Both the position numbers and the translations under genes were made by a program. DNA of 64,000 bases from Bryobacterales bacterium. Its GTDB lineage: Bacteria; Acidobacteriota; Terriglobia; Bryobacterales; UBA6623. Each line of letters begins with the position of its first letter. Position 1 is the stretch's first letter. Positions 1,391 through 56,185 of this stretch are shown here, in pieces. The notes beneath the pieces were generated by a model. That model was not told the origin of the DNA. It saw only the letters and a list, made by a program, of their open reading frames with translations, and made no database searches. The stretch lies in contig OZ252029.1 of NCBI GenBank assembly GCA_965247515.1, forward strand, positions 6,828,692 to 6,892,691. Reading direction: 5' to 3'.

Positions 1391-1487
1391 TGCGGAACCC
1401 GCTCCCTTGCGGTCGCGGCTCCGACGTCGCGAGTCAAACGCTAACCGGAAGGCGTCAGAGCCGCGACCGCAAGGGAGCGGGTTCCGC
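1391..1487. repeat. REP-like palindrome: 30-bp perfect inverted arms (gcggaacccgctcccttgcggtcgcggctc / gagccgcgaccgcaagggagcgggttccgc) between the convergent mtnA and dnaE2. Probably a bidirectional terminator.
   Basis: Direct reading of the sequence. The same core recurs at 29620-29690, 43975-44060, 54648-54830, 56131-56185 and at the IS5-like ends. Confidence 0.8.
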
Positions 1488-1512
1488 AATCCCCAGACGC
1501 GCGTGCAGGCGC

Positions 1513-4500
1513 TCAATGGAAATCATGCGACTCCATCGGGAGCGCCATTGCTTCCAAGGGTCGCACCCAATCCGTCTTGACCGAGATTGTCCCGTCGACC
1601 TTCTGCAAAACTCCTTCGGCGAGGATGAAGGTCTCGTTCATGACGACCGCGCGGTGATCTTGGAAGATCGGCGGCGTCAGGATCAGGTTCGAGACGCCCG
1701 TCTCGTCTTCGAGCGTGAGGAAGCAGAAGCCTTTTGCGGTCCCCGGGCGCTGGCGGGTGATGACGGCGCCGGCGACACGGACGCGGTGGCCGTGGCCGCG
1801 TGTGGCCAACTCGCTCGAGCGCAACACGCTGGGGTCGTCGAGCGCTTGGCGCAGGTAGTGCATCGGGTGCGGGCCGACGGTCATGCTCGAGCCGCGATAG
1901 TCGGCGTCGAGGCGCTCGAGAGGGGTCATCGTTGCCAGAGGTCCGGCCGGCGCCTCGTCCTCTTGCTGCTCGAAAAGAGGCCCCTTTGGCTTCCAGGCTT
2001 TTTCGATTTGCCAGAGGGCTTCGCGGCGGTGCATTTCGGGGTTCAGCGAGTTCAACGCGCCGAGCTCTGCGAGGATGTCGAGCTCGTTCTTGTTGAGCTT
2101 GGTTCGCTTGACGAAGTCTTCGACCGACCGGAATGGGCGCCGGCTGACGATGCGTTCGGCGGCTTCGCCTCGCAGGCTCGAGACGTACATCAGCCCGAGT
2201 CGAACGCTTTGTGAATCGACGCGGCTCTTGACGTCTGAATCGTTCACGTCGATCGCGCGGACACGGACGCCGTGGCGCTGGGCGTCTTTGACGAGCACGG
2301 CCGGCGAGTAGAATCCCATCGGCTGGCAGTTGAGCAGCGCCACGAGGAATTCGGCCGGGTAGTGGGCCTTCAAGTACGAGCTGGCGTAGGCCAGCAGGGC
2401 GAAGCTGGCGGCGTGCGATTCGGGGAAGCCATAGAGTGCGAAGGAGGTGATCGAGCGGATGATCTGCTCGGCGCCTTCGCCTACGATGCGGTTCTTGGCT
2501 AGCCCTGAGCGTAGGCGCTCTTCGATGTCTTGCATGCGTTCGACGGAGCGCTTGAATCCCATGGCGCGGCGTAGGCCTTCGGCTTCTCCACCGGAGAATC
2601 CTGCCGCGACCATCGCCATGCGTAAGAGCTGCTCTTGGAACAGCGGCACGCCGAGGGTTCGCTTGAGAATCGGCTCAAGCGAGGGGTGCGTGTACTCGAC
2701 TGGTTCGCGACCCAAGCGCCGGTTGATATAGGGATGAACCATCTTGCCGACGATCGGCCCTGGGCGAATGATGGCGACCTCCACGACGAGGTCGTAGAAG
2801 CACGCCGGACGCAGCCGCGGCAAGGTCGCCATCTGGGCTCGGCTCTCGATCTGGAAGACCCCAACGGTGTCGGCGCGCTGGATCATCTGGTAGGTTTTCG
2901 GGTCGTCCGGAGGGATCTTGGCCAAGTCGAATTCGCCGCCTTTGGATCGGATGATTGTCGTCGCTTCTTCGAGGGCGGCCATCATTCCGAGTCCGAGGAG
3001 ATCGACTTTGATGAGCCCCAGGTCGGCGCAGTCTTCCTTGTCCCACTGGACGACGACGCGGTCGGGCATGCGGGCGTTTTCGAGCGGGACGACGGAGTCG
3101 AGCTGGCCCTGGCAAATCACCATGCCGCCGGAGTGCTGGCCTAGGTGTCGCGGTAGGCCTTGCATCTCGAGACACAGCTTGGCCAGATGCATCACGCGAG
3201 GGTGGTCGGCGTCGAAGCCGGCGACTTTGACCTGGTTGACGAGCTTGTCGTGGTCGTCGGTGTACTCGAAGCTGTGGATGCATTTCGACAGCCACGCGAT
3301 CATCTCTTCGGGGAAGCCGAGCACCTTGCCGACTTCGCGGACGGCCATCTTCCCCCGATAGGTGATGACGTTGGCAGTCATGCCGGCCCCGCGTTTTCCG
3401 TAGCGGCTATAGACGTGTTGGATGACTCGCTCGCGCTGGTCGCCGGAGGGGAAGTCAACGTCGATGTCGGGCCATTCGCCGCGTTCTTCCGAGAGAAAAC
3501 GTTCGAAGAGCAGTTCCATGCCGACGGGGTCGACGGCGGTGATGCCGAGGCTGTAGCAGACGGCGGAATTGGCCGCCGAGCCGCGACCTTGGCAAAGGAT
3601 GCCGTTGCGCTTGGCAAACTCGACCATGTCCCAGACGATCAGGAAGTAGCCCTCAAGCTCGAGCCGGCGGATGACTTTTAGTTCCTTCTCGATTTGATGG
3701 CGGGCCGTTTCGCGGTGAGGGGAGTCGCGGTAGCGCTCCATCGCGCCCTTGATGGTCATCTGGCGCAGGTAGGAGGTCGGCGTCTCGCCCGCCGGCAGCG
3801 GATATTTCGGAAATTCGTATCCTAAATTCGCCAATGTGAAGTCGAGCCGCACCCCAAGCTCATCCGTGTTGGCGAGGGCCTCGGGGATGTCGCGGAAGAG
3901 CTCGGCGATGTGTGGCGGGGGCTTGAGGTAACGCTCGGCGTTGGAATCGAGCAGGCGGCCGACTTGGTCGAGCTTCTTTTTCAGCCGCAAGCAGGTGAAG
4001 ATGTCGAACATTGGCTTGCGGCGCTCGACGGCGTAGCGGACCCCGTTCGTCGCGATCAGCGGGAGTCCGTGGCGGCGCGCGAATTCAATGCGGGCTTGGT
4101 TGTCTTTCTCTTGCTCGCGGCGGTGGTGGCGCTGGAGCTCGACGTAGACGTTGCGCCGGCCGAAGATGCCGCGAACCGGGTCTTCGTCACGCAGGTCGTG
4201 CAGTAGAGCGACCAGACCCAGGGAGAAGTCGTCGATGTCTTCCCAGGCGGCGCGCCCTTCGCCCTTGGGGGCGCGGAGGTTCATGCGCGTGAGCAGGCGG
4301 CAGAGGTTCTGGTAGCCCGTGCGGTTTTCGACTAGGACGGTCAGGCGACGGTCGAGCGAGGCGTTGGGGGTTCCCTTCTTGATTCCTGGTTGGTGGAGGG
4401 AGATCTCGGCGCCGACAAGCGGCTTGATTTTGGCCTTGCGGGCGGCTTGGAAGAATCGCGGGGCACCGGAGACCGAATCTCGGTCGCAGAGGGCGATGGC

Positions 4501-4599
4501 CTGATAGTTCAGACGAGCCGCTTCGTTGACAAGGTCTTCCGGGTCGGAGGCGCCTTCGAGGAAACTGAACCCCGAGGCTGCATGAAGTTCGACAGCCAC
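1513..4599 (-). CDS. dnaE2: Error-prone DNA polymerase III alpha subunit DnaE2 (ImuC)
   Basis: 1028-aa ORF with an N-terminal PHP domain (MAVELHAASGFSFLEGAS) followed by the Pol III alpha core. The length is typical of ImuC rather than replicative DnaE. Confidence 0.85.
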   Translation of the reverse strand: MAVELHAASGFSFLEGASDPEDLVNEAARLNYQAIALCDRDSVSGAPRFFQAARKAKIKPLVGAEISLHQPGIKKGTPNASLDRRLTVLVENRTGYQNLCRLLTRMNLRAPKGEGRAAWEDIDDFSLGLVALLHDLRDEDPVRGIFGRRNVYVELQRHHRREQEKDNQARIEFARRHGLPLIATNGVRYAVERRKPMFDIFTCLRLKKKLDQVGRLLDSNAERYLKPPPHIAELFRDIPEALANTDELGVRLDFTLANLGYEFPKYPLPAGETPTSYLRQMTIKGAMERYRDSPHRETARHQIEKELKVIRRLELEGYFLIVWDMVEFAKRNGILCQGRGSAANSAVCYSLGITAVDPVGMELLFERFLSEERGEWPDIDVDFPSGDQRERVIQHVYSRYGKRGAGMTANVITYRGKMAVREVGKVLGFPEEMIAWLSKCIHSFEYTDDHDKLVNQVKVAGFDADHPRVMHLAKLCLEMQGLPRHLGQHSGGMVICQGQLDSVVPLENARMPDRVVVQWDKEDCADLGLIKVDLLGLGMMAALEEATTIIRSKGGEFDLAKIPPDDPKTYQMIQRADTVGVFQIESRAQMATLPRLRPACFYDLVVEVAIIRPGPIVGKMVHPYINRRLGREPVEYTHPSLEPILKRTLGVPLFQEQLLRMAMVAAGFSGGEAEGLRRAMGFKRSVERMQDIEERLRSGLAKNRIVGEGAEQIIRSITSFALYGFPESHAASFALLAYASSYLKAHYPAEFLVALLNCQPMGFYSPAVLVKDAQRHGVRVRAIDVNDSDVKSRVDSQSVRLGLMYVSSLRGEAAERIVSRRPFRSVEDFVKRTKLNKNELDILAELGALNSLNPEMHRREALWQIEKAWKPKGPLFEQQEDEAPAGPLATMTPLERLDADYRGSSMTVGPHPMHYLRQALDDPSVLRSSELATRGHGHRVRVAGAVITRQRPGTAKGFCFLTLEDETGVSNLILTPPIFQDHRAVVMNETFILAEGVLQKVDGTISVKTDWVRPLEAMALPMESHDFH

Positions 4600-4808
4600 G
4601 CGTGGGGAGTTAGTTTATTCGCTAAATGTTCGCCTGTCAAGATGCAGAGCCATGGACGGAAGTCCATGGTCAGGACGCTTATGCCGCACAGATAAGACCA
4701 TGTGAGTTTGGCATTCTGAATTGGCCCCTTTCGGCGCCCTGATTTGGCCCCCCTAGAACAATCAACGGATACTCTGTTTGCGGGAATCGCCCGCAACGGA
4801 GGAACGAA

Positions 4809-6321
4809 TTGGACTGGAGGAGCAAAGTGGAACTATTCGAAGAGATTCGACGCGAGTACGAATTCGGCGTGGGGACGATCAAGGGGGTGGCGCGCAAGCT
4901 GGGCGTGCACCGGCGGATGGTGCGCGAGGCGGTAGCCAGCGCGCTGCCGCCGCCGCGCAAGAAGCCGGCGCCGGCGGTGGGGTTCATCGACCGCATTCTC
5001 AAAGAGGACCGCAAGGCGCCGCGTAAGCAGCGTCACACGGCGCACCGTATCTGGAACCGGATACGGGAGGAAACCAGTTGCGAAGTGGCCGAGCGCACGG
5101 TGCGGCAGTACGTTCAAGAGCGCAAGCGTGAGTTGGGATTGGAGAAGCGCGAGACGTTCGTGCCGCAAAGCTACGACTGGGGCCAAGAAGCGCAGGTGGA
5201 CTGGTACGAGTCGTGGGCCGAGATGGACGGCGAGCGCGTGAAGCTGCAAGTGTTCACGATGCGCTCGATGGCGAGCGGCGCGGCCTTTCATCGCGCCTAT
5301 CGGCGCGCGACGCAGCAGGCGTTTCTGGAAGCGCACGAGCTGGCCTTGGCCTACTTTGGCGGGGTGTTTCGGACATTGAGGTACGATAATCTCTCTTCGG
5401 CGGTGAAGCGGATTCTGCGCGGCGCGCGACGCGAGGAGACGGCGCGCTTCGTGGCTTTTCGTTCGCATTGGCGCTTCGCCTCCGAGTTCTGCACGCCGGG
5501 GAAAGGCAACGAGAAAGGGGGCGTGGAAGGCGAGGTGAGACGTTACCGCCGCAACCACCCCGGTGCCGCTGCCTGAAGCCAAGACGCTGGACGAGCTCAA
5601 CAGCAAGCTGCTCGAAGGCTGCCGCGAAGACGAAGCGCGCACGGTCGCCGGACGGGCGCAAACGGTCGGCGAGGGAATGCTGATCGAACGCGAGCGGCTG
5701 TTGGGGTTGGCGGCGGAAGGCTTTGAGATCGAAGTGTCGAGCTTCCCGAAGGTTGACGCGACAGGCTGCGTCAAGGTGCGCACGAACTTCTACTCGACGC
5801 CGCTGCGTCCGGGAACCAGGGCGCAGGCGAAGATCTACGCCGAGTCGGTCGAGGTCTGGCACGAAGGTCGTCGCATCGCGCGACATGAGCGCAGCTACTC
5901 TCGGCAGCAGAAGATCTTTAATTTGGAGCATTACCTCGACGTATTGGCCCACAAGCCGGGAGCGCTGGCGGGCTCGACGCCGCTGGAACAATGGCGCCAA
6001 GCCGGGCGTTGGCCGGCGAGCTACGACACGTTATGGGCGAAGTTGATCCAGCGCCATGACAAGCAAGCGGGGACGCAACAGATGATCGAGCTGTTGCAAG
6101 AGGGCAAACGCCACGGTTGGGACAAGCTGAGCGAGGCGATCGAGAAAGCGCTCGAGTGCGGCTGCTGCGATCAGGCGGCGGTGCGTTACTTGCTGACCTC
6201 GCAGTGCCTCGAACGGCTAGCTCAGCCGCCGCTGGTGGCGCCGGAGCTGGAACGCTTTGAGCGGCCCTTGCCGACGCTGACGAACTACGATCAGTTGCTG
6301 GCGGCGGAGGCGGTGCAATGA
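4809..6321 (+). pseudogene. istA: IS21 transposase IstA, split by a +1 frameshift near 5555-5575 (extra C in a caccccg run)
   Basis: Two ORFs (4809-5576, 5563-6321) together give the IstA architecture: an HTH N-terminus, the DDE region, then ..RRYRRNH | [14 protein letters not shown]. Removing one C restores the frame. Confidence 0.7.
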
Positions 6322-7106: not shown

Positions 7107-7346
7107 CAAGGAGGGCGCTCGTTTTTGGGGACATCGTCCTGCGCTTCGCCCTTCGGGCTCCGCTCCGGACCACGTCCCCAAAAACGAAAGGAGGTGACCT
7201 GAAATCAATGACTTAGAGGCCCGTTTACAGGGGGGCCAAAATAAACCGCCGAAGTGGGCCAAGTGAAGTTGCCAAAAACAACCATGGACTTCCGTCCATG
7301 GCTCTGTTGCCGGTTGTGCGACTTTGGCCGTAGTTGCAGCGCAAAC

Positions 7347-8741: not shown

Positions 8742-8848
8742 GACGTGGCGTACGGCTATGCCGTGCCGCCTTGCGCTTGTAGCGCAAGGTCTCCTTGAAA
8801 CCTTGCGCTACAAGCGCAAGGCGGCACGGCATAGCCGTACGCCACGTC
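8742..8848. repeat. 49-bp perfect inverted repeat with a 9-nt loop (nested ttgcgcttgtagcgcaa palindrome) between the amidase stop and the SDR start
   Basis: gacgtggcgtacggctatgccgtgccgccttgcgcttgtagcgcaaggt - ctccttgaa - exact reverse complement. Confidence 0.9.
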
Positions 8849-13318: not shown

Positions 13319-15220
13319 TAAGGGGCCGTGAAGAAAACCTATTGTCGCGTCGGCGCGCGGGAGCGCCAAGCGCACGCCAAGCTCAGCGCTGCCGAACGCC
13401 GCCCCTGCCGAAACCGCAACTTCTGCGCCTCGACTCCTGATTGACCGCCTGAGCGGCCCGGAAACGGTCGTTTCGGGCCGTTTCCCGGCCCTTTTCGCCC
13501 CCCGAACCGCCGCTACGCCGCCGCTTGCGCCGCCAGCCCGCACTCCGGCCCACGACGCCAGACCAGCCGGATCCAAGCCGCAATGTTGTACGCCAAAACC
13601 CCCCACAAAAGCTCCGATCGCGCCTTCCGCAGCCCTCGTACTCGAAACTTGCGCACCCCCAATCGCTCTTTCAACCAGGCGTTCGGAAACTCCGCCGTCT
13701 CGGACCGCTTGCGATACGCCGCCCGCCCACGCTCGCTCTCCATCCAGCGCCGATGTTTCGCCATCACCGCGTTCTCTTCGCTGCGGCTCAACGTTCGATG
13801 ACCGCTCTTGGGGCAGCACTTGTGTCGCTGTGCGCATTCGCGACAATCAGATGCTTTTGCCTGATACTGCCGATATTTGCGCTTCCGCTTCAGCGACGAT
13901 CGCTGATACGTCAAGGTCCGCTGGGCCGGACACAGAAACGTGTCCGTCGCCTCGTCGTAGATGAAAAACTTCGGCGCGTAGCGCGGCCCAATTCCCGCCG
14001 CTTTCAACGCCGCCTTCGAGCCCTTGTCCGGCGCCGGCGCCGGCGTCGCGTATTCGATTTCAGCGGCTGCCAGCGCCTCGATGTTGGCCTGGTTGGCGTA
14101 GCCCCCGTCCGCTAACACTTGCTTCGGGGTTCGCTCGAAGCGCCCTTCCACATCGTCCAGCGTCGGGGTCAGCTGGCCCGCATCGGAGGCGTTGTTGGTC
14201 AACTCCACGCCGACCACGATCTTCTCTTTGGCTTCGGTCGCCAGCTGCGCGTTGTAGCCGAGTCCCCAACCGCCGTTGGATTCGTGTTGCGGGCGCGCTT
14301 CCGGCTCGCTCTCGCTCACCCGCGCCTGGCGTCGTTGCTCTTCGTCGCGCTTGCCCGCTTCGACCTTGGGCAGTTCCTCCAGCGCCTGCTCCATCCGCTC
14401 GACTCGCTCCCGCAAGGTCCGCTTACGCGCCGCCTGACGCCGCCGATTCGAACCCTCGTCGTCGGCTTCTTCCGAGAGTTGACGCACCGCTTCGCGCGCT
14501 TGTTCGAGATGCCGCTCGAGCGTCGGACGCCTGCGTTGCGACCCGCCCGAGGCTTGCGCCCGGATCCGCGTGCCGTCGACGGCCACCTGCTCGAGATCCA
14601 CCAGCCCCTCTTGACTCAGCAGCGCCAATACCTGTGTCAACAAGTTCTCGAGAGCTTTTGAGTGGAATACCCGAAAATCCGAAAGAGTGTGATGATTGAC
14701 GACCGCCATGCCGCACAACCACTCCAACTCCGGCCGATAGCGGCTTTGACGCGCGATCTCACGCGCCGAGCTCATCCTTTCCGAATACGCCCAGATCCAG
14801 ATCGCGACCAGCAACCGCGGATCCCATGCCGGCCGCCCGGCGGACTCCTTGCGGGTTTCCAGATGAGCAGCGAAGCCGGACAGGTCGAGCATGCCGCTCA
14901 GCTCCCAGATGGCGCGCACCAGATGGTCGGCCGGCACGAGCCGTTCGACGTCGATCGCGGCATAGGTGAATTGGTCGCGATTGGGCTGTCGCAGCTGCAG
15001 TTGGTCAACGGGCACGGCTTGGCGCGGCTTGGCGGGGCGTTGCTCGAGCTCGACTAAGACCTGTTGTTCGCCCATATAATAAGGGCGTTGGACGCCGCCG
15101 CCAAGTTATCCGAACATTCGTTTGCCCTCATGTTTTATCCCATTTTGATCCACTCGCGCCATTCCGAACCGCCCCAGGGGAGCTTCGGCGGCCACGACGG
15201 GTTTATTTCACAGCCCCTCA
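13319..15220 (-). mobile_element. IS5/IS1182-like insertion sequence, copy 1 (about 1.9 kb)
   Basis: Terminal inverted repeats TAAGGGGCTGTGAAATAAACC / TAAGGGGCCGTGAAGAAAACC. Both ends abut REP-like sequence. Near-identical to copy 2 at 46877-48778 in inverted orientation. Confidence 0.8.
13513..15075 (-). CDS. IS5/IS1182-family DDE transposase (520 aa)
   Basis: N-terminal DUF772-like region, DDE core (GYNAQLA..DGGYAN) and a C-terminal Cys cluster. 99% identical to the 47022-48584 ORF. Confidence 0.8.
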   Translation of the reverse strand: MGEQQVLVELEQRPAKPRQAVPVDQLQLRQPNRDQFTYAAIDVERLVPADHLVRAIWELSGMLDLSGFAAHLETRKESAGRPAWDPRLLVAIWIWAYSERMSSAREIARQSRYRPELEWLCGMAVVNHHTLSDFRVFHSKALENLLTQVLALLSQEGLVDLEQVAVDGTRIRAQASGGSQRRRPTLERHLEQAREAVRQLSEEADDEGSNRRRQAARKRTLRERVERMEQALEELPKVEAGKRDEEQRRQARVSESEPEARPQHESNGGWGLGYNAQLATEAKEKIVVGVELTNNASDAGQLTPTLDDVEGRFERTPKQVLADGGYANQANIEALAAAEIEYATPAPAPDKGSKAALKAAGIGPRYAPKFFIYDEATDTFLCPAQRTLTYQRSSLKRKRKYRQYQAKASDCRECAQRHKCCPKSGHRTLSRSEENAVMAKHRRWMESERGRAAYRKRSETAEFPNAWLKERLGVRKFRVRGLRKARSELLWGVLAYNIAAWIRLVWRRGPECGLAAQAAA

Positions 15221-15327
15221 GCGGGCGGTTGCTTGAGAATGGGAGCAAATTGCGATTCCTCAAGCAACCGGTCCCTGACCTGGACGAGCCGGAACCCAAA
15301 GGTCAAAGGTTCGCGCCTTTTCCGAGC

Positions 15328-15412
15328 ACCCTGCGTGAGGTGAGCGGGGTGTATTATTCTTACTTTCGCGGCCGTCGCCCGGGTTGTGGGAAGACACCCC
15401 GCTCACGCAGGG
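15328..15412. terminator. 25-bp inverted repeat downstream of the DapA-like gene
   Basis: gagcaccctgcgtgaggtgagcggggtg .. caccccgctcacgcagggtgctc. Confidence 0.4.
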
Positions 15413-15524
15413 TGCTCGGAATTCCTGCCGGATTTGTGCAGGAATCGTTTACAAAGGTACTTGCGGTCTCGGGCTCCGGGTCCATCCGCCTGGCATGGCG
15501 TTGCCTAAGTCGACAGTATTGGCC

Positions 15525-18205: not shown

Positions 18206-20192
<1,987 letters not shown>

Positions 20193-29450: not shown

Positions 29451-29467
29451 TGGAGCCGCGACCGTGA

Positions 29468-29617
29468 GGGGCTGTGAAAAAATGTCGGGGATCCACTTCC
29501 GGCAAGACGGGCTTGGCATGCCAAGCCCCTACGTCGTTGAAAACAAACGATCGTCCGTAGGGGCGAGGCATGCCTCGACCGTCTTTCGCGCTCAACGGGT
29601 GATTTTTTCACAGCCCC
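29468..29617. mobile_element. 150-bp MITE carrying the IS5-like terminal repeats (GGGGCTGTGAAAAAAT ... ATTTTTTCACAGCCCC). Flanked by a TGA duplication and inserted into one arm of a REP palindrome.
   Basis: Ends match the IS5-like element ends at 15206-15217 and 46880-46895. Both flanks read tga. Removing it restores a 27-bp-arm REP (ggagccgcgaccgtgagggagcggttg / caaccgctccctcacggtcgcggctcc). Confidence 0.75.
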
Positions 29618-29620
29618 TGA

Positions 29621-29689
29621 GGGAGCGGTTGCTGGGATCGTTGACGGCCTACCTTTGACAACCGCTCCCTCACGGTCGCGGCTCCAGTC
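29621..29689. repeat. REP-like palindrome (right arm and loop), the target of the MITE
   Basis: gagggagcggttg ... caaccgctccctcacggtcgcggctcc. Confidence 0.7.
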
Positions 29690-29851: not shown

Positions 29852-29860
29852 GCGACAAAC

Positions 29861-33473: not shown

Positions 33474-35460
<1,987 letters not shown>

Positions 35461-43974: not shown

Positions 43975-44060
43975 CACCCGGAGCCGCGCGCGTAAGCAAG
44001 CGGTTGTCGGTGTCTGGGCAACCGCTTGCTTTACGCGCGCGGCTCCGGGTGACGGCGAAA
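43975..44060. repeat. REP-like palindrome (30-bp arms) in the PAP upstream region
   Basis: cccggagccgcgcgcgtaagcaagcggttg ... caaccgcttgctttacgcgcgcggctccggg. Confidence 0.8.
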
Positions 44061-46653: not shown

Positions 46654-46876
46654 TGTTGTTTCTCCTTGCTCTTGCGTTATTGTTTTCGAACTCATGTTGT
46701 CTGTCACTTGATTGGATGCTGGAAGCAAGCAAAAAGGTACAAAAAAATTACAAACCGCTTGCGTTTGGTATTTCCCGTGTGGTATGGGCTCTCATCGGAG
46801 ATGCGGTCGTTGTCGACCATACCCTTACGGGCATGGCACGTGGAACGCGTCTGCCGTCATCCACGTGCCCCGCGCG

Positions 46877-48778
46877 TAAGGGGCTGTGAAATAAACCCGT
46901 CGTGGCCGCCGAAGCTCCCCTGGGGCGGTTCGGAATGGCGCGAGTGGATCAAAATGGGATAAAACATGAGGGCAAACGAATGTTCGGATAACTTGGCGGC
47001 GGCGTCCAACGCCCTTATTATATGGGCGAACAACAGGTCTTAGTCGAGCTCAGGCAACGCCCCGCCAAGCCGCGCCAAGCCGTGCCCGTTGACCAACTGC
47101 AGCTGCGACAGCCCAATCGCGACCAATTCACCTATGCCGCGATCGACGTCGAACGGCTCGTGCCGGCCGACCATCTGGTGCGCGCCATCTGGGAGCTGAG
47201 CGGCATGCTCGACCTGTCCGGCTTCGCTGCTCATCTGGAAACCCGCAAGGAGTCCGCCGGGCGGCCGGCATGGGATCCGCGGTTGCTGGTCGCGATCTGG
47301 ATCTGGGCGTATTCGGAAAGGATGAGCTCGGCGCGTGAGATCGCGCGTCAAAGCCGCTATCGGCCGGAGTTGGAGTGGTTGTGCGGCATGGCGGTCGTCA
47401 ATCATCACACTCTTTCGGATTTTCGGGTATTCCACTCAAAAGCTCTCGAGAACTTGTTGACACAGGTATTGGCGCTGCTGAGTCAAGAGGGGCTGGTGGA
47501 TCTCGAGCAGGTGGCCGTCGACGGCACGCGGATCCGGGCGCAAGCCTCGGGCGGGTCGCAACGCAGGCGTCCGACGCTCGAGCGGCATCTCGAACAAGCG
47601 CGCGAAGCGGTGCGTCAACTCTCGGAAGAAGCCGACGACGAGGGTTCGAATCGGCGGCGTCAGGCGGCGCGTAAGCGGACCTTGCGGGAGCGAGTCGAGC
47701 GGATGGAGCAGGCGCTGGAGGAACTGCCCAAGGTCGAAGCGGGCAAGCGCGACGAAGAGCAACGACGCCAGGCGCGGGTGAGCGAGAGCGAGCCGGAAGC
47801 GCGCCCGCAACACGAATCCAACGGCGGTTGGGGACTCGGCTACAACGCGCAGCTGGCGACCGACGCCAAAGAGAAGATCGTGGTCGGCGTGGAGTTGACC
47901 AACAACGCCTCCGATGCGGGCCAGCTGACCCCGACGCTGGACGATGTGGAAGGGCGCTTCGAGCGAACCCCGAAGCAAGTGTTAGCGGACGGGGGCTACG
48001 CCAACCAGGCCAACATCGAGGCGCTGGCAGCCGCTGAAATCGAATACGCGACGCCGGCGCCGGCGCCGGACAAGGGCTCGAAGGCGGCGTTGAAGGCGGC
48101 GGGAATTGGGCCGCGCTACGCGCCGAAGTTTTTCATCTACGACGAGGCGACAGACACGTTTCTGTGTCCGGCCCAGCGGACCTTGACGTATCAGCGATCG
48201 TCGCTGAAGCGGAAGCGCAAATATCGGCAGTATCAGGCAAAAGAAGCTGATTGTCGCGAATGCGCACAGCGGCACAAGTGCTGCCCCAAGAGCGGTCATC
48301 GAACGTTGAGCCGCAGCGAAGAGAACGCGGTGATGGCGAAACATCGGCGCTGGATGGAGAGCGAGCGTGGGCGGGCGGCGTATCGCAAGCGGTCCGAGAC
48401 GGCGGAGTTTCCGAACGCCTGGTTGAAAGAGCGATTGGGGGTGCGCAAGTTTCGAGTACGAGGGCTGCGGAAGGCGCGATCGGAGCTTTTGTGGGGGGTT
48501 TTGGCGTACAACATTGCGGCTTGGATCCGGCTGGTCTGGCGTCGTGGGCCGGAGTGCGGGCTGGCGGCGCAAGCGGCGGCGTAGCGGCGGTTGGGGGGGC
48601 GAAAAGGGCCGGGAAACGGCCCGAAACGACCGTTTCCGGGCCGCTTGGGCGGCCAATCAGGAGTCGAGGCGCAGAAGTTGCGGTTTCGGCAGGGGCGGCG
48701 TTCGGCAGCGCTGAGCTTGGCGTGCGCTTGGCGCTCCCGCGCGCCGACGCGACAATAGGTTTTCTTCACGGCCCCTTA
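46877..48778 (+). mobile_element. IS5/IS1182-like insertion sequence, copy 2 (inverted relative to copy 1)
   Basis: Same terminal repeats. The right end abuts REP sequence cggtcgcggctccggg. Confidence 0.8.
47022..48584 (+). CDS. IS5/IS1182-family DDE transposase (copy 2; a few substitutions vs copy 1)
   Basis: 520 aa, 99% identical to the 13513-15075 ORF. Confidence 0.8.
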   Translation: MGEQQVLVELRQRPAKPRQAVPVDQLQLRQPNRDQFTYAAIDVERLVPADHLVRAIWELSGMLDLSGFAAHLETRKESAGRPAWDPRLLVAIWIWAYSERMSSAREIARQSRYRPELEWLCGMAVVNHHTLSDFRVFHSKALENLLTQVLALLSQEGLVDLEQVAVDGTRIRAQASGGSQRRRPTLERHLEQAREAVRQLSEEADDEGSNRRRQAARKRTLRERVERMEQALEELPKVEAGKRDEEQRRQARVSESEPEARPQHESNGGWGLGYNAQLATDAKEKIVVGVELTNNASDAGQLTPTLDDVEGRFERTPKQVLADGGYANQANIEALAAAEIEYATPAPAPDKGSKAALKAAGIGPRYAPKFFIYDEATDTFLCPAQRTLTYQRSSLKRKRKYRQYQAKEADCRECAQRHKCCPKSGHRTLSRSEENAVMAKHRRWMESERGRAAYRKRSETAEFPNAWLKERLGVRKFRVRGLRKARSELLWGVLAYNIAAWIRLVWRRGPECGLAAQAAA

Positions 48779-49370
48779 CGGTCGCGGCTCCGGGGCGCCC
48801 GCCCGGCCGCAGCGCATCGAGATAGATACTCATACCGCGCCCGCACAACCGTATGACAGCAGGGTCCCTTGCGCCCTTTGCCAGACCCGCGGCGTCGCAA
48901 TCGACACTCATGTCAACGTAGCCCCGAGCCTTCGAGCTTCTAAGCGACTCCGCCAGCTCGTCTCTCACGTCGTCAATCAGGCGCTGGAGCTTCACCTGAA
49001 AGGCATCGTCGGTAACGGACAACTCCTGAACGAGGTTGTTGAGAGGACACCCCAGTTCCGATATCTTCTCGTCGCCGCTGCTCATCCCCTCGAGAATCGC
49101 CGCAATGCCCTCCACCGGATCCGGCGAGCTCCTCAGCGGTCCGAGCCACGCCCGATCGATATACGATCGAATCACTTCATCTACGATCGCACGACCCAGC
49201 GCCGCCTTGTTCTCGAAGTGATAATAGAACGCTCCCTTCGTCAATCCGATCCCATCGAGAATGCGATCAAGGCTTGCGGCGCGAAAGCCCAGGCGGCGCA
49301 CCTGCTCGTAACTGGCAGCGAGAATCTGATCCCGCGTCTCAGGCGTTTGAGTCGATGCTTTCGCGATCAT
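48657..49370 (-). CDS. TetR-family transcriptional regulator. Its C-terminal ~40 codons run into the REP/IS end.
   Basis: N-terminal TetR HTH ..LGFRAASLDRILDGIGLTKGAFYYHF.. Confidence 0.7.
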   Translation of the reverse strand: MIAKASTQTPETRDQILAASYEQVRRLGFRAASLDRILDGIGLTKGAFYYHFENKAALGRAIVDEVIRSYIDRAWLGPLRSSPDPVEGIAAILEGMSSGDEKISELGCPLNNLVQELSVTDDAFQVKLQRLIDDVRDELAESLRSSKARGYVDMSVDCDAAGLAKGARDPAVIRLCGRGMSIYLDALRPGGRPGAATVRGREENLLSRRRAGAPSARQAQRCRTPPLPKPQLLRLDS

Positions 49371-51529: not shown

Positions 51530-53031
51530 CACTTCGCCTCGGGGAAGAATTTTCGCAATGTAGCCCGGCTCGGGGGCTTTGTGAACAGCGAGACTCCGAC
51601 CAGGGTGACAGCTGACGAAAGGAAGATTGTCAACACAGGCATCAGGCCCATGAACAAGTAGCCGCCCTCGGCCCCGTAGCCGCTCGCGTGAAACAGCGCG
51701 AACCAGACGACTCCGGCCACCGCGATGGAGGCCATTCCTCCCGCTTTGGTCACGCCTCGCCAGTAGAGGGCGCCGCACAGGAGGGGGAACAGCCCGGTGA
51801 AGCCCGAGAAGCACCAGATCCCCATCGCAAATACGGCTCTGGGTTCGCCCAACGAAAGAAGATAGGTCACGGCAACGACGGCGACGACGAAGCCCCGGCC
51901 AAGCGCCAGGCGCGAGCGGTCGCTGATCGTGCCGTGCCTGAGCGGAGCGACCACATCATTGGCAAAGATCGAGCCCAGCGCCAGGAACTGCGAATCGAGC
52001 GAAGACATGATCGCCGCTAGTATGCCCGCGCCGAGCAGGCCGCCAATCAATGGTTCGGTCAGAGCTTCGACCATCGTAGCCAGCTCCGTGTTGGGAGCAT
52101 GATCGAGGGGAACGACCAATGATCCATCAGGCAAGGCCGCGGCCGTCGCCCAAACGCCAATCATCACCGTCGGAACCCACAGGATCATGATGAGCACGGG
52201 ATGAGCCGCGATCGTCAGCTTGAATGATTGCGCCGAGCGCGCCGTGAGCCAATGTTGAAACAGGTGCGGGAACATCGCGGCCGACAACGGAATCAGCCCG
52301 TAGGTGAGGAACTGGAGATGACTATACTCCTCGCCTCGAACAAGCCTCTCCGGATGCGCCGCCAGCACAGCTTCGGTCGCCGCCTCTGCTCCGCCGAGCT
52401 TCGAAGCGATCAGCGTGAAGGCGATCACACCAGCCACGATGAACACGAAAGCCTGGAGGGTGTTCGCCCATGCCGCCGCCCGTAGTCCGCCGAAGAACAC
52501 GTACGACAGCACGACTAGGCAGATAACGAAGCTCGTCACCGCCGGCGCCATCCCGCCGGCCGCGGGAAAAGCCTCGCGGGTCAGGGCCCGCACGACGCCG
52601 CCGGCGCCGAGTAGCCCGGTCAGCAAATACGGAATCACCAACCCGACCAGGACCGGAAACAGCAGCCAGCCGATCGCTTGACTCTCAAAGCGGTCGCGGA
52701 AGAACTGGATCTGCGTCACGTAGCCGTGGCGTTTCCCCAAGACCCACAGCGGAACGCCGATCAGCAGAAAGACGCCGGTGTGAACGATTGCCGACCACGA
52801 GGCCAGCGTCCCGAACACTCCGATTCCGCCGCGGTAGGCCTCGCCGCTGCTGCCGACCAAAGCGAAAGCGGTCATCGACGTCCCAAACAGCGACATCAAC
52901 AGCATCACCGGCCCGATCGACCGGCTGGCAACGAAGAAGTCCTGGGATGTGCCGCGAAAAAGTCGATTCGTCACCAGCCCAAGGCCGAGCACAAGGGCCA
53001 GGTAGAGGCCCATGATGACCAGTTGGGTCAT
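51523..53031 (-). CDS. Sodium:solute symporter (SSS) family transporter
   Basis: Multi-TM SSF-like transporter. Start MTQLVIMGLYL overlaps the stop of the DUF3311 gene. Confidence 0.75.
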   Translation of the reverse strand: MTQLVIMGLYLALVLGLGLVTNRLFRGTSQDFFVASRSIGPVMLLMSLFGTSMTAFALVGSSGEAYRGGIGVFGTLASWSAIVHTGVFLLIGVPLWVLGKRHGYVTQIQFFRDRFESQAIGWLLFPVLVGLVIPYLLTGLLGAGGVVRALTREAFPAAGGMAPAVTSFVICLVVLSYVFFGGLRAAAWANTLQAFVFIVAGVIAFTLIASKLGGAEAATEAVLAAHPERLVRGEEYSHLQFLTYGLIPLSAAMFPHLFQHWLTARSAQSFKLTIAAHPVLIMILWVPTVMIGVWATAAALPDGSLVVPLDHAPNTELATMVEALTEPLIGGLLGAGILAAIMSSLDSQFLALGSIFANDVVAPLRHGTISDRSRLALGRGFVVAVVAVTYLLSLGEPRAVFAMGIWCFSGFTGLFPLLCGALYWRGVTKAGGMASIAVAGVVWFALFHASGYGAEGGYLFMGLMPVLTIFLSSAVTLVGVSLFTKPPSRATLRKFFPEAKCA

Positions 53032-53255
53032 CCCTCGTCCGGCCAGGCGTACTTGGCCGCCAGAGACCAAACCACGGCGGCCGCGCAGCAATAGACAGCG
53101 TGGTAGGCGAGCCCGATGGGCATGAAGCCAAACACGAGGGTCGAGTCATTCCACCACCAAAAGTCGTGGTGCAGAATCGCCAGAAGCAAGATCAAGAGGT
53201 AGACAACCGCGCGAGGCATCGAACGAGGAGCCAGGGTAGCATCCCCGCAGTCCAT
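53028..53255 (-). CDS. DUF3311-like small membrane protein partner of SSS transporters
   Basis: 75 aa, two TM segments, HHDFWWWN motif, translationally coupled to the transporter. Confidence 0.6.
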   Translation of the reverse strand: MDCGDATLAPRSMPRAVVYLLILLLAILHHDFWWWNDSTLVFGFMPIGLAYHAVYCCAAAVVWSLAAKYAWPDEG

Positions 53256-53652
53256 TCCGCACGACTTGTCTTCAAGTCGGGAATTGGGTTCGTTTCGAAA
53301 TTAAGCTATTTTGGGGCCAAGTTTTCGATGGCAGTACTCCTGGTACGTTGATCCTGCAAGCCAAGCGAGGCGATCAAGATGTGAAGCCCCCCCGTTGTTA
53401 TGCGGGCCATTCCGGGCAAAAGCGGAAATCTGTGGGTAAGACCGTGGAAGCTGTGAGCCGTGGGCGGCCGGCCGTTGGCGGTTGGGTGGGACATGTCGGT
53501 TTTAGTATGACTTGCGTTTCGGCTCCTGCCTCGGGACGGCGAGCGCAAGTTGTTGATGAGTCGATGCTTACTTTTTTCGTAAAGCGGTGATGACAGGTCG
53601 AAGCTGACGAACAGGCGCGAATCGGGCCCCGTCCCCGCAAGCGCCCCCTGCT

Positions 53653-53964
53653 TCACTGCTGCTTGACTTTGGCGTCGTAGAGATTCATCCCGTACGCCTC
53701 TTTGACCGCGTTGATCAGGTCCGCCACCTTGACCTGTTCGGCGTCATACTTCACGACGGCTTCGTTTTTGGACAACGAAACGTCCACCCCTGCTACGCCC
53801 TTGACCGATTCGAGTGCAGACTGCACTACGTCGACGCAGGCTGTTCACGTCATCCCGATGATCTCGAGGGTCACCGTTTTCTCTTTCGCGGGCGTTTCCG
53901 CGAACGCAGCGCCGGCGAGCATGGCCGCCGCGGAAATGCTCGCCGCGAAAATACGTCTTAGCAT
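53653..53964 (-). CDS. Periplasmic HMA-domain (MerP/CopZ-like) protein with in-frame TGA at the first Cys of the GMTCxxC motif (GMT-U-TAC); candidate selenoprotein
   Basis: Signal peptide MLRRIFAASISAAAMLAGAAFA, then TVTLEIIGMT-TGA-TACVDVV...KVADLINAVKEAYG (HMA fold). A bulged-U hairpin with GUC loop lies 17-30 nt 3' of the TGA. Confidence 0.5.
53811..53832 (-). promoter_or_regulatory. SECIS-like hairpin: CG-U(bulge)-AGUGCA-GUC-UGCACU-CG
   Basis: Upper stem and loop UGCA-GUC-UGCA with a bulged U below. This resembles the E. coli fdhF SECIS apical region UGCA-GGUC-UGCA with bulged U. Confidence 0.45.
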
Positions 53965-53998
53965 GTCGTCCTGCTCTAAGGCTGAGCTTGGCTTCTTG

Positions 53999-54400
53999 TT
54001 ACATCCCCATGCGTGGCATGGTCTTGATCTGATCGGCCGTCTTGCCGGGGATGGCGCCGTCGCCGGCGTGCCAGCCTCCCTTGCATTCGTTACAAACAGG
54101 CATGTCTTTCGCGGCGTTCATACCGCACGGGCACTGGCCCATCTTTAGCGCGCAAGAGCTGCAAGCGGTCCTGAGGCAACAGGCGTACTTGCCGTCCGCC
54201 ATCGCCTGAGCTTTGACTTTTTCGATCTGAGCATCGGCCTTCTGCATGGCTTTCGGCCGATTCATCATCATTTGCTTCATCATTTCCATTTGCTTCGACA
54301 TGCCTTCGTCGCTTTGGGCGATCGCGACAGCGCCCCAGCCCGCGGTGAAAACAGCCAGCGCGAGCAGAGCGGACATGAAGAACTTGCTGCTGGGGTTCAT
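53999..54400 (-). CDS. Secreted Cys-rich protein (14 Cys; CxxC/CPC clusters); possible metal-binding partner
   Basis: Signal peptide MNPSSKFFMSALLALAVF. C-terminal ..YACCLRTACSSCALKMGQCPCGMNAAKDMPVCNECKGGWHAG.. Confidence 0.4.
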   Translation of the reverse strand: MNPSSKFFMSALLALAVFTAGWGAVAIAQSDEGMSKQMEMMKQMMMNRPKAMQKADAQIEKVKAQAMADGKYACCLRTACSSCALKMGQCPCGMNAAKDMPVCNECKGGWHAGDGAIPGKTADQIKTMPRMGM

Positions 54401-54647
54401 TTGACGCCTCCTACGCGTAACTTCTCGCGGCACGCATGCGGTTGACGGCTCCTGGTCCCGGCTCGCACAGCGCGCCTGTCGGGGTGGAACCGGACTGAAG
54501 CGGCGACAACGAACCCGGGGACCTTCGCCTCCGTTTCTTTCTCTACCTGAGTATTCGCGCCCGGCGGCAAGCCAGTTACTTCGAGCCGAAGAATTTGCCT
54601 ACGTACTCGCGGACTCCGCTCACTCGAAAACCCACTCCACCGGTCGA

Positions 54648-54830
54648 GTGCGTCGCCGCCCCGGAGCCGTGCGCGTCAGCAAGCGGTTGCCCGCGGTTGC
54701 GACAACCGCTCCCTCACGGTCGCGGCTCCTGGGCGGCCGTTTTCATCCCTTTGGGTGGGCCGTCAGGCCCATGGGGCATCGCGCCGTCAGATCAGAGCCG
54801 CGACGGCGAGGGAGCGGGGTCCGCATTCAT
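54648..54830. repeat. REP-like elements (two arms plus spacer)
   Basis: ccggagccgtgcgcgtcagcaagcggttg ... caaccgctccctcacggtcgcggctcc ... gagccgcgacggcgagggagcgg. Confidence 0.7.
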
Positions 54831-55225
54831 CATTCGAAGCTCCTCGCGAACTTCCCGTACGAGCGCTCCCTACGGTGGAAACCGTTGTCGCCCTCGGTGC
54901 GGTCGGACTGGCGTTCGCTGGTTATCGTGAGAGAACAGCGGCTCATGGAACCAACGACCCAGCGTTTCGTGCAATGGGCCGAAGAGACGGTTGTCGAAGG
55001 GGATAATGTTCATGGCTGCCTCCTTGGCGTTTCGTTCGCCACATGATGTGGAGCAAGTTGGTTGCCAAATCAGCCACGCTGAATCGCCGCTCGAGCGCGG
55101 GCGATTCGGCGGCGATCGGGGGATGACACCCATCCGGGCGAGCTGCCGCACTGCCGCATGCGCGGCCCACAACCCGTTAGCGGCCCTATAATTGCTCTGA
55201 CCCCTCATGTAAGGACCCCTTATGA

Positions 55226-56095
55226 ATGTTTAGATTCGCCGCTAAGCAGACAGCCGTCCGGATGCGCGAGCTGGATCGCCAGATCAAGCGCTGCCGGCGC
55301 ACCCAACATGAGGAGCCGATCCATGACCTACGAGTGGCGACCCGCCGCTTGCAAAGTTGCCTGAAAATTTTCGGCAAGTTGTTCCCGGCGCGGCCCGTTC
55401 GAAAGACGCTACAGCGATTGCGTCGGATGCGAGCTCTCGCCGGGACGGTGCGCGACTATGACATCGCCATTGCGCTTGCAATCGAGTCGAGTGACCGGGA
55501 AGGGCGCCTTGTCAATCATCTGCGCGCTCGGCGAAGCGAGGCGGCCGATGCGTTCGCGGCGCGGCTCAAGTCGTGGCCCAAGCCCGGAAGTATTGAGCGT
55601 TGGCGGGCCGACCTGCGGCTGGAGAGAGAGCCGGCGGCGAAAAAGCTCTCAGCGAGCGGCTGGGATGCGGGGCGCTCCGCGGCTGTAAACGCTGGGAAGA
55701 CCTTACCGCCGCTGTGCGCGAAGTTCTTCCGAGAAGGACACGAACTACTTAGAAGCTCGTGTGACGACGCCGCGCTGCATCGCTTCAGGATTCGAGCAAA
55801 GCGCTTTCGCTACACGCTCGAGATCTTCGAACCGTGCTACGGCAGGGGCCTGAGGAAGTGGGTCGACTCCCTCAAACTACTCCAAGAACACCTGGGCTGG
55901 ATCAACGACTGCCAGACAACGCAAGCGTTGATCAGCCGCGAGCAGGTCGCTTGCTTCGCGCAAGAAGCGCTCGAATTTGGTCAATTCCTCAAGTCCACGG
56001 CGCGCCTACGCCGGGCCGCGGCGGTCGAGCTCTGGGGTGACCGCTTCCGCCGCCGGAAGGTCGAGCGCCGATGGGTCCACTACCTCTCCCGCTAG
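55226..56095 (+). CDS. CHAD-domain protein
   Basis: HDLRVATRRLQSCL and repeated His/Arg-rich helices are characteristic of CHAD. Confidence 0.65.
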   Translation: MFRFAAKQTAVRMRELDRQIKRCRRTQHEEPIHDLRVATRRLQSCLKIFGKLFPARPVRKTLQRLRRMRALAGTVRDYDIAIALAIESSDREGRLVNHLRARRSEAADAFAARLKSWPKPGSIERWRADLRLEREPAAKKLSASGWDAGRSAAVNAGKTLPPLCAKFFREGHELLRSSCDDAALHRFRIRAKRFRYTLEIFEPCYGRGLRKWVDSLKLLQEHLGWINDCQTTQALISREQVACFAQEALEFGQFLKSTARLRRAAAVELWGDRFRRRKVERRWVHYLSR

Positions 56096-56130
56096 CCCCA
56101 ATACTCTTCACTTAAGGATGAGCTGGGAGT

Positions 56131-56185
56131 TTGGTCGCGGAACCCGCTCCCTTGCGACCGCAAGGGAGCGGGTTCCGCACACTCC
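56131..56185. repeat. REP-like tight hairpin gcggaacccgctcccttgcg-accg-cgcaagggagcgggttccgc
   Basis: Same arm sequence as the 1391 element. Confidence 0.8.

Follow-up and report, generated by a model that had tools for sequence, protein, structure and literature searches.

In a 64-kb window of a Bryobacterales genome (the window being the whole stretch of DNA that was analysed), two copies of an insertion sequence (IS) and a MITE lie within short intergenic repeats. This raises the question of whether the repeat is a preferred landing site, entered at a fixed nucleotide as an earlier note on this DNA had proposed, or whether the elements came to lie there in another way.

Repeat arms and their occupants

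The window contains about 15 repeat arms, each 27-33 nt long, with the formula CAACCGCT(C/T)(C/G)C-TNA-CG(G/C)(T/G)CGCGGCTCC(GGG). Every arm is intergenic, and all sites lie outside coding-like ORFs. The full 27-nt core, allowing up to three mismatches, occurs four times in the window and not once in 100 shuffles, and the half-arms CGGTCGCGGCTCC and AACCGCTCCCT are present six and eight times against 0.67 and 1.41 expected. The eight positions named for this family by the earlier note are all real, but its listing had left out three sites (15264-15278/15461-15480, 54797-54826 and 46866-46879), the first of these being an arm split by a 182-bp element. The majority of arms are paired in inverted orientation and yield strong predicted hairpins. 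These doublets fall into two pair types with spacers of 12 to 37 nt (window and related contigs), and alternating clusters occur as well, with three arms at L011 7809-7958 and another cluster at window 54663-54826 (L numbers denote sequences outside the window). The description of the copies as palindromes thus holds for the inverted pairs, which fold, but not for a single arm (-4.5 kcal/mol, z = -0.87). The sites are as follows, with the strand where one is assigned:

1388..1491: 'type A' REP doublet, 39-nt arms 97% complementary, 26-nt spacer; centre TTG, not TNA; unoccupied; -57.4 kcal/mol, z = -12.9; architecture shared by L008 and L009
13303..13321: outer half-arm CCCGGAGCCGCGACTA and TAA, adjoining IS copy 1 on its transposase-distal side
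13322..15217, minus strand: IS copy 1, 1896 bp, IS1182 family; transposase ORF 13513-15075, 520 aa
15218..15278: TCA, inner half GCGGGCGGTTGC, 31-nt spacer, partner-arm inner half GCAACCGGTCCC and TGA
15279..15460: 'Element C', 182-bp non-coding repeated element at the centre of the partner arm
15461..15480: TTG and partner-arm outer half CGGTCTCGGGCTCCGGG
29452..29467: outer half-arm GGAGCCGCGACCG and TGA, left of the MITE
29468..29617: MITE, 150 bp, terminal repeats GGGGCTGTGAAAAAAT, TGA at each side
29618..29685: TGA, inner half GGGAGCGGTTGC, 26-nt spacer and intact partner arm CAACCGCTCCC-TCA-CGGTCGCGGCTCC
43977..44049: 'type C' doublet, unoccupied, arms CAACCGCTTGC-TTA-CGCGCGCGGCTCC, 12-nt spacer; -48 kcal/mol, z = -11.7; L013 and L027 carry filled sites whose right flanks match its right arm and the adjoining right-hand sequence
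46866..46879: outer half in degenerate form, gtgCCcCGCGCG, with TAA, next to IS copy 2 on its transposase-proximal side
46880..48775, plus strand: IS copy 2, 1896 bp; intact 520-aa ORF 47022-48584
48776..48795: TTA and outer half CGGTCGCGGCTCCGGGG, next to IS copy 2 on its transposase-distal side; filled orthologous sites are present in L012 and L015
54660..54732: doublet without insertion, with a type C arm on the left (plus-strand centre TCA) and a type B arm on the right, 13-nt spacer; z = -4.65
54797..54826, minus strand: lone arm of type A kind, TCG at the centre, no insertion
56136..56182: short palindrome of two overlapping type A inner halves GCGGAACCCGCTCCCTTGCG, unoccupied; z = -8.5

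Arm density is ~0.15-0.25 per kb in the sequence sampled (window and related contigs). We counted 43 intact arms in 301 kb; metagenome contigs totalling 656 kb gave 208 more intact arms but a single IS junction, and an exact arm is present in at least 120 metagenome contigs. Extrapolation gives more than 1000 arms per genome. Arms account for ~0.5% of the sequence, and non-arm intergenic TNA sites are far commoner.

With regard to REPs, BIMEs and REPINs (PMC3116915, PMC3333891, PMC2817692, PMC3733652), the repeat shares short length (27-33 nt, within the 20-40 nt of REPs), GC-richness, intergenic location, high copy number (about 15 arms in 64 kb) and an organisation into inverted pairs and alternating clusters with variable loops and spacers. 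There is also one case of presence or absence of a whole doublet, as a paralogous copy of its flank at 31272-31359 lacks it (43976-44054 versus 31322/31323). In contrast to the imperfect palindrome that forms the REP unit, the single arm is no stem-loop, the GTAG tag was not seen, and no RAYT was found next to the repeat in the 1.16 Mb sampled with one query sequence; L010 contains the one Y1_Tnp gene encountered in the DNA sampled, with a palindrome of another family flanking it. Because single arms do not fold and a RAYT association was not found in that sample, the name 'REP' denotes likeness only. The repeat is very probably a REP/BIME-like family, very abundant in this genome and mostly of inverted pairs able to form 30-45-bp hairpins.

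Insertion at the central TNA of the arm

The two IS copies are 1896 bp each, inverted to one another and 99.4% identical, and both encode the transposase as one 520-aa ORF. This protein scores 403.7 bits against the IS1182 model NF033551 of NCBIfam (cut-off 270, residues 31-503) and below the cut-off against every IS5 model; its Pfam domains are DUF772 (N-terminal region) and DDE_Tnp_1 and DDE_Tnp_1_6 (catalytic region). The element, earlier termed 'IS5/IS1182-like', is thus a member of the IS1182 family and not of IS5. IS1182-family elements range from about 1.3 to 1.95 kb, which includes the length found here. The terminal repeats of copy 1 are GGGGCCGTGAAG / GGGGCTGTGAAA, and the ends GGGGCYGTGAA(A/G)(T/A)AAAC are kept in relatives.

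We fetched 32 further near-identical copies from related long-read metagenome contigs, giving a set of 34 that are each at least 98.7% identical. In all 34 the insertion point is an arm's central TNA (both junctions readable in 31), a ratio that applies to the window and to related-strain contigs picked for carrying the IS, not to one complete genome. A REP-targeting IS in the sense of Tobes & Pareja (2006) is expected to have more than 45% of its copies, with at least four copies, in the repeat and a fixed insertion point; here the share is 34/34 across the window and related contigs and the point is always the central TNA. Matched duplications are TAA/TTA at 15 sites and TCA/TGA at 3, and about a third of the copies have mismatched flanking triplets, including both window copies (copy 1 TAA/TCA on the plus strand, copy 2 TAA/TTA). 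Two copies have GAA in place of TNA. An uninterrupted paralogue at window 54663-54689 shows a single TCA where L007 has TCA-IS-TCA. The IS follows no orientation rule, both orientations relative to arm polarity being used at about 14 to 8.

Tabulation of the occupied copies, which the earlier note had called for, returned the central TNA throughout. TAA/TTA centres are favoured over TCA/TGA (occupied arms 15 TWA/3 TSA, intact arms 3 TWA/13 TSA; Fisher p = 4e-4), and no insertion was seen in ~20 arms centred TTG, TTC, TCC, TCG or TGG; arms that lack the TNA are avoided. Occupied arms show almost no variation in their right half CGCGGCTC or in the CCGC on the left. Solo arms are used as well: at least three occupied arms have no partner within the 48-50 nt of flank displayed (the L008 copy at 1678, L019 and L026).

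The MITE (29468-29617) is situated between tRNA-Asp and tRNA-Asn. It has TGA on both sides, as had been noted before, and removal of the MITE with one TGA restores the consensus arm exactly. Its terminal repeat GGGGCYGTGAA is common to the IS; the ends match IS copy 1 over 12 bases and those of L031, a relative at 62% identity, at 16/16. The shared part is restricted to these 12-16 terminal bases, the interior being unrelated to the IS. Including the window copy, we found five full copies (four in related contigs) and two truncated ones, all at an arm TNA, with the full copies at the arm-centre TNA in 5/5 cases. It is thus a small, non-coding, multicopy element with the ends and duplication of an autonomous one, as expected of a MITE, and would be mobilised in trans by such a transposase. 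Element C, in the partner arm of IS copy 1, recurs as a 178-bp copy in L014 (87% identity), with more copies in L004, L011 and L012.

The target is conserved across the IS clade, since the same arm sequence is entered in other genomes by relatives with protein identities of 68%, 62% and 48%. In L001 and L003 (66-68% identity) the TGA duplication lies within CCGCTTGC-TGA-CGTGCGCGGCTC, in L031-L040 (62%) type C arms are used in 10/10 cases, and in L045-L047 (48%) the elements are located in CAACCGCTTAC-TGA-CGTGCGCGGCTC. The controls in the window, two group II intron, two IS3-family and one IS21-like copies, are all outside arms (5/5), and of three copies of an unrelated 1477-bp IS, which makes YTA duplications, just one is in an arm.

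The proposal that the repeat is a preferred landing site with a fixed nucleotide was therefore borne out by the IS (34/34), the MITE (5/5) and relatives down to 48% identity. Its counter-case, a scarce repeat with IS copies elsewhere unassociated with it, does not hold, as the repeat is dense in the sequence sampled and the 32 copies fetched from elsewhere are all in arms. One detail requires correction: the ends of both IS copies and of the MITE were said to sit in palindromes at the same position, which does not apply to the left end of copy 2 (46879), where there is a degenerate half only. Thus, the observation itself is confirmed and its central interpretation supported.

Probable recognition of the arm sequence and proposed reshuffling of flanks

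We consider it highly likely that the IS and the MITE recognise the arm sequence itself and insert at its central TNA with a 3-bp duplication, and that recombination then reshuffles the flanks. On this view the arm would be recognised both by the IS, as an active IS1182-family DDE transposon, and by the 150-bp MITE that shares its terminal repeat; the central TNA would be cut with a 3-base stagger, and insertion in either orientation would duplicate it. We infer that the 10-13 bp to either side of the TNA are read by the transposase, with its N-terminal DNA-binding region as the most plausible reader.

A structural form of recognition, in which hairpins or cruciforms of arm pairs are targeted as in IS1272/TnSha1 of Staphylococcus and sequence conservation is incidental, appears unlikely. 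These elements share the transposase family and a liking for palindromic or hairpin-forming DNA; they enter hairpin stems with low sequence specificity, and IS1272 inserts without regard to primary sequence, part of the hairpin being lost and the target left unduplicated (PMC4923244, PMC5678879). The element studied here, in contrast, is sequence-specific, leaves the arm halves intact and makes a clean 3-bp duplication. Although most occupied arms belong to very strongly folding pairs and both orientations are used, the insertion nucleotide is constant whatever the spacer length or loop distance (the distance from the TNA to the hairpin tip varies because of the range of spacers), and arms without a nearby partner are occupied. 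Moreover, TTG-centred type A hairpins made from the same arm are unoccupied, as are the strong window palindromes 8742-8848 and 33157-33361, and no IS or MITE insertion was seen in other palindrome families of the window.

Could the elements instead enter any TNA and survive only in harmless intergenic repeats? This would agree with the intergenic location of every arm. It would also agree with the TNA duplications reported for related elements: some IS5-family groups and PIF/Harbinger, which have a related DDE fold (DDE_Tnp_1), make 3-bp TNA or TWA duplications, prefer TAA/TTA and are generally described as requiring just a short TNA. The present element differs in that an extra ~10-13 bp per side is conserved at every site. 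An absence of target preference is highly improbable given that arms, so small a share of the sequence, have all 34 copies and every relative examined at their centre, whereas the unrelated YTA-duplicating IS of the same genomes is mostly outside arms and other mobile elements of the window persist outside them. Least probable is that the arm halves belong to the mobile unit, as long composite ends, or are made by it, the repeats being a trail of IS and MITE ends: identity of the window copies does extend 23 nt past the IS end into the arm, and inverted outer halves flank copy 2 and L005, but this reading is largely refuted already by the great excess of intact single-TNA arms over occupied ones, the occurrence of the element in both polarities relative to the arm, the exact arm restored on removal of the MITE and the lack of arm-like sequence inside the IS.

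Returning to recognition of the arm sequence, the many copies in arms would permit homologous recombination between them, by which flanks would be shuffled. At copy 2, only the right flank (48776-48795) is a good arm; the left end abuts only the degenerate half gtgCCcCGCGCG-TAA, so that this copy bears two 'outer' halves, and its left flank, chimeric or rearranged, derives from a different arm. L012 corresponds to window 46879-58582 (99.76% identical over 11.7 kb), with homology and synteny ending at the IS end; L012, L015 and the window have a common right flank and three different left flanks. L017, L022 and L024 each carry two IS copies in neighbouring arms in direct orientation. Recombination among copies would account for the mismatched duplications, the outer-outer and inner-inner flanks and the synteny break left of copy 2. 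Points that weigh against the overall reading are the share of copies with mismatched triplets, the two GAA cases and the L005 copy, which carries a ~24-nt inverted copy of its own flank. Certain chimeric flanks could be metagenome assembly joins at the 1.9-kb repeat.

Relation to known REP-targeting elements

REP-targeting is known from IS1397 and ISKpn1 (IS3), IS621, ISPpu9, ISPpu10 and ISPa11 (IS110), ISRm22 (IS4), ISRm5 (IS256) and ISNm1106 (IS5) (Tobes & Pareja 2006, PMC1525189). As in those cases, nearly all copies occupy a fixed position in an intergenic palindromic repeat that is short and abundant, and the repeat is a safe landing pad whose occupants later promote rearrangements. The differences are that IS1182 is absent from these five families, that the present host is an acidobacterium (Bryobacterales), and that the element enters an inverted pair in the middle of one of its arms and duplicates the TNA there. 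The RNA-guided recombination of IS110-type elements (PMC11208160, PMC11187229) is inapplicable to the DDE enzyme found here. Some IS1182-family members target palindromic sequences (Siguier 2015, as cited by Furi et al. 2016, PMC4923244), and in the literature searched we found no paper that ties this family to REP targeting. The element is therefore an IS1182-family addition, from Bryobacterales, to a known class of REP-targeting insertion sequences, and not a surprising one, as repeat-targeting is already known from other families.

A broader reading is possible but doubtful: an IS1182 clade may have specialised on one REP-like superfamily across Acidobacteriota, keeping its target even as transposase identity fell below 50%. 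Subclades would track the variants CAACCGCT..C-TNA-CG..CGCGGCTC and GTGGTCGCAGCC-TNA-YGGCYGCGGCACC, arms that lost the TNA (TTG, TTC, TCC) would be escape alleles, and the doublet would be mobile without a RAYT. If so, such specialisation and escape would set two kinds of repeated DNA against each other in an arms race.

Inverted intergenic arms in the window

The window has a G+C content of 59-65%, and its genes, ordinary chromosomal ones, include those for an MtnA/eIF-2B-like protein, a DnaE-type polymerase, a sodium:solute symporter and a CHAD-domain protein. From the closest genome matches and one relative annotated 'Bryobacteraceae bacterium', we infer that the host belongs to the Bryobacterales. 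The 27-nt core of the palindrome family proposed in the earlier note was recovered four times (up to 3 mismatches) against none in 100 shuffles, and two core halves occurred 6 and 8 times where 0.7 and 1.4 were expected. Inspection of every position in that note together with a profile search gave ~15 arms, i.e., repeat units of 27-33 nt around a central triplet, with the consensus CAACCGCT(C/T)(C/G)C-NNN-CG(G/C)(T/G)CGCGGCTCC(GGG). All arm sites in the window lie outside coding-like ORFs. Most arms form inverted pairs (doublets) of two kinds.

Arm pairs in the window
29452-29685, outer half first
43977-44049, outer half first (type C arms)
54660-54732, outer half first
1388-1491, reverse arrangement ('type A'), TTG centre, constant 40-nt core-to-core interval

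Spacers in the outer-half-first pairs span 12-37 nt between arm ends, or 16-37 nt when measured from the arm cores. As single strands, arm pairs fold strongly (z = -4.7 to -12.9) and a lone arm does not (z = -0.87). Dyad symmetry around TNA, the sign of a site for a symmetric protein dimer, was weak or absent, amounting to CC..TNA..GG only. Other strong palindromes at 8742-8848, 11779-11899, 33157-33361 and 33233-33285 do not belong to the family.

An IS1182-family element and a MITE at arm centres

Elements sharing the 11-mer end GGGGCYGTGAA
13322-15217, minus strand, IS copy 1, 1896 bp
46880-48775, plus strand, IS copy 2, 1896 bp
29468-29617, MITE, 150 bp

Both IS copies (99.4% identity) contain an intact 520-aa ORF, whose product carries the Pfam domains DUF772, DDE_Tnp_1 and DDE_Tnp_1_6 and scores 403.7 bits against NF033551 (IS1182 family; cut-off 270), staying under the cut-off of every IS5 model. 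As judged from these profile matches, the protein is an IS1182-family transposase, and the IS5 label previously attached to the element is not borne out.

The TGA duplication reported for the MITE is indeed present on either side of it, and deleting the MITE with one TGA yields GGAGCCGCGACCG-TGA-GGGAGCGGTTG, the exact complement of a consensus arm. The arm halves adjoining the elements might instead be cargo carried by them; given this restored arm and a search of the IS that found no arm-like sequence inside it, we regard such a reading as much less likely than insertion into arms. IS copy 1 occupies the left arm of a doublet, with plus-strand triplets TAA/TCA. For copy 2, only the right side shows a good outer half, TTA-CGGTCGCGGCTCCGGGG, the left side bearing a degenerate one from a different arm; the proposal that IS ends lie inside matching arms consequently stands for the right end of copy 2 and fails for its left end.

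The right arm of the doublet hit by copy 1 is also split at its centre, by a 182-bp element at 15279-15460. This partner arm (15264-15290) had looked degenerate, a reading that we rejected since the arm is normal apart from the insertion. The element is a repeated, non-coding sequence of 178-182 bp, found also at 9636-9813 of the related contig L014 and in L004, L011 and L012, and placed at arm centres in several loci. It lacks obvious terminal inverted repeats and holds an internal palindrome, GAGCACCCTGCGTGAGCGGGGTGTC, that is dispersed elsewhere as well. The MITE and its doublet, in turn, are inserted between tRNA-Asp and tRNA-Asn of an array of 15 head-to-tail tRNA genes on the minus strand (28445-30157, within 1.7 kb); a further tRNA-Leu follows 2.6 kb away at 32796-32868.

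A scan of representative genomes returned only three relatives, all distant and from Bryobacterales MAGs. By protein search, 147 near-identical sequences were seen to cluster together; they come from long-read metagenome contigs, one of 9.1 Mb. Fetched contigs encoding cluster members supplied 32 additional IS copies (identity at least 98.7%), among them the orthologous duplicates L004/L014, L008/L021 and window copy 2/L012/L015. At every junction the IS ends against half of an arm, at the central triplet, except in L013 and L016, where the IS adjoins another IS itself placed at an arm's central triplet. The earlier claim of targeting at one fixed nucleotide of the repeat is in this way upheld across the related contigs, and all five full MITE copies likewise sit at arm centres.

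Insertion sites of the IS
Matched TAA or TTA duplication: 15 sites
Matched TCA or TGA duplication: 3 sites
Remaining sites: mismatched triplets
Orientation of IS relative to arm: ~14 : 8
No partner arm seen within the displayed flank (48-50 nt): at least 3 hit arms (the L008 copy at 1678, L019, L026)

The unbroken arm at 54663-54689 holds a single TCA and its paralogue in L007 reads TCA-IS-TCA, which confirms a true 3-bp duplication. At the level of sequence, these junctions show insertion that is site-specific, duplicates the 3-bp TNA and follows no orientation rule. L007 and L013/L027 had been considered as allelic, filled versions of empty window sites. This was rejected, since their homology extends over less than 300 nt, marking them as paralogous copies of one doublet-plus-flank unit; they are, on this comparison, good for inferring the duplication and no proof of strain polymorphism.

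Relatives of the IS (protein identity to the window IS) and their sites
L001, L003: 66-68%; ..CCGCTTGC-TGA / TGA-CGTGCGCGGCTC
L031-L040, 1860-bp IS: 62%; type C arms in 10 of 10, matched TAA or TTA in 9
L045-L047: 48%; CAACCGCTTAC-TGA-CGTGCGCGGCTC
L041-L043, L002, L048: 62%, 47% and 53%; variant GTGGTCGCAGCC-TNA-YGGCYGCGGCACC

Judged from these sites, arm-centre targeting is common to the IS clade. The 16-nt ends of the MITE equal those of the 62% relative, with 12 bases matching IS copy 1, and its interior is unrelated to either element.

Target choice and chimeric flanks

Other mobile elements of the window, none in contact with an arm
18197-20192 and 33474-35469, group II intron, two copies
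38054-39655 and 59752-61354, IS3-family element, two copies
4645-7306, IS21-like element

The 1996-nt inverted repeat formed by the first pair was considered as another IS and rejected; its 100% identical units are group II introns (Rfam RF02003 and RF00029) with an RT plus maturase ORF at 18697-20028, and they enclose 13.3 kb including the tRNA array. The IS3-family element (1602 bp, rve integrase core) has ends TGGAGTGAACCCC and 3-bp duplications TTC and GAT. The IS21-like element, directly upstream of the DnaE-type polymerase gene (1513-4599), has perfect 26-nt terminal inverted repeats and IstB at 6318-7106; its IstA-like part is spread over two ORFs (4809-5576 and 5563-6321), so it may be frameshifted.

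In the related contigs, a 1477-bp IS with YTA duplications lay in an arm in 1 of 3 copies. It is a second DUF772/DDE_Tnp_1 element (464 aa, CTA or TTA flanks), found at L013 8379-9855, in L016, and at L004 1409-2885 and 14571-16046. In L013 and L016 it forms a tandem with the IS1182 element, both placed at one arm triplet; the other two copies are not in arms, and L004 has a copy absent from its orthologue L014.

In 301 kb there are 43 intact arms, of which 22 carry a triplet other than TNA at the centre (TTC, TTG, TCC, TCG, TGG); no such centre was seen in an occupied arm. After de-duplication, intact TNA arms comprise 13 TCA/TGA and 3 TTA/TAA, against 3 and 15 among occupied arms with matched duplications (Fisher p = 4e-4); occupied arms hardly vary in their left-hand CCGC and right-hand CGCGGCTC. 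These comparisons show a TNA requirement, a preference for TAA/TTA and an apparent dependence on arm sequence rather than on a hairpin. Recognition of structure only, as in IS1272 (PMC4923244, PMC5678879), would suit the strongly folding doublets; with arms that show no partner in the displayed flank also hit and non-TNA arms untouched, it is much less likely. Selection alone, acting on insertions made with no target preference, could place survivors in intergenic arms, and the placement of every copy at an arm centre and the survival of the other elements outside arms likewise make it much less likely. We therefore favour sequence-guided insertion, in which the transposase would read ~10-13 bp either side of TNA and presumably move the MITE in trans, and IS copies would recombine afterwards.

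Such recombination between neighbouring copies would produce 'outer-outer' flanks (window copy 2, L005) and 'inner-inner' flanks (L018, first L022 copy), and so account for the mismatched triplets. L017, L022 and L024 each hold two full IS copies in direct orientation; these occupy adjacent arms of a single cluster, with 42-60 nt between them, and are likely precursors of deletions leaving chimeric flanks. L012 matches window positions 46879-58582 at 99.76% identity up to the IS end; to the right of copy 2 the flank is common to the window, L012 and L015, but on the left each has a flank of its own. An inversion between the two window copies was rejected as the cause of their mismatched flanks, because L012 upstream DNA does not recur beside copy 1 and copy 1 lies normally in its doublet's left arm, partner arm present. 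Some chimeric flanks in metagenome contigs may be assembly joins. In L005, ~24 nt of the left flank recur in inverted form after the IS. The full IS of L005 (9811-11800) and the MITE of L008 (21320-21563) have an identical 78-nt left flank; with just these 78 nt in common, the two may sit in one and the same arm.

Kinship of the repeat and its bearing on the lineage

At least 120 metagenome contigs from JGI contain the exact 26-nt arm, and among the matches listed, 656 kb of these contigs hold 208 arms and one IS junction. In its arrangement the repeat behaves like a REP/BIME family, being short, GC-rich, intergenic and abundant, with inverted pairs, alternating clusters and variable loops. 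Unlike a full REP family, its lone arm is not a stem-loop, a GTAG tag is not evident, and no RAYT was found beside it in the sampled DNA; we therefore call it REP-like. The sole Y1 transposase gene in that DNA (L010 15335-15790), used as a tblastn query, found no other RAYT-like gene. On either side this gene has palindromes of another family, the 33157-33361 type (CCCACAGC...GCTGTGGG), which may be its cognate repeat.

When filled and empty sites were compared by hand, one doublet (43976-44054) proved absent from a paralogous copy of its flanks: these (43938-44106) are found a second time at 31272-31359, in inverted orientation and directly joined at 31322/31323. This suggests that the ~80-bp doublet is or was mobile as a unit; it was the only such case among the empty sites sought.

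Families with documented REP targeting include IS3, IS110, IS4, IS256 and IS5 (PMC1525189), and palindrome or hairpin targeting is documented for some IS1182 members (PMC4923244). In the literature searched, neither an IS1182-family element that targets a REP-like repeat nor this repeat in Acidobacteria was described. IS1272, of the same family, uses a hairpin-cutting mode, whereas the present element makes a duplication and appears sequence-specific.

With more than 45 natural insertion sites sharing a ~27-bp target and non-TNA variants untouched, the element would lend itself well to work on how IS5/IS1182/Harbinger-type DDE enzymes choose their targets. It provides a rule for where the IS and MITE would land next, namely arm centres with TAA or TTA. 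IS1182 would join the families that use REP-like repeats as safe havens. For this abundant, little-studied soil lineage, the arms, MITEs and nested elements would account for much of the intergenic repeat content, including the insertion amid a tRNA gene array, and would explain many synteny breaks among close strains.
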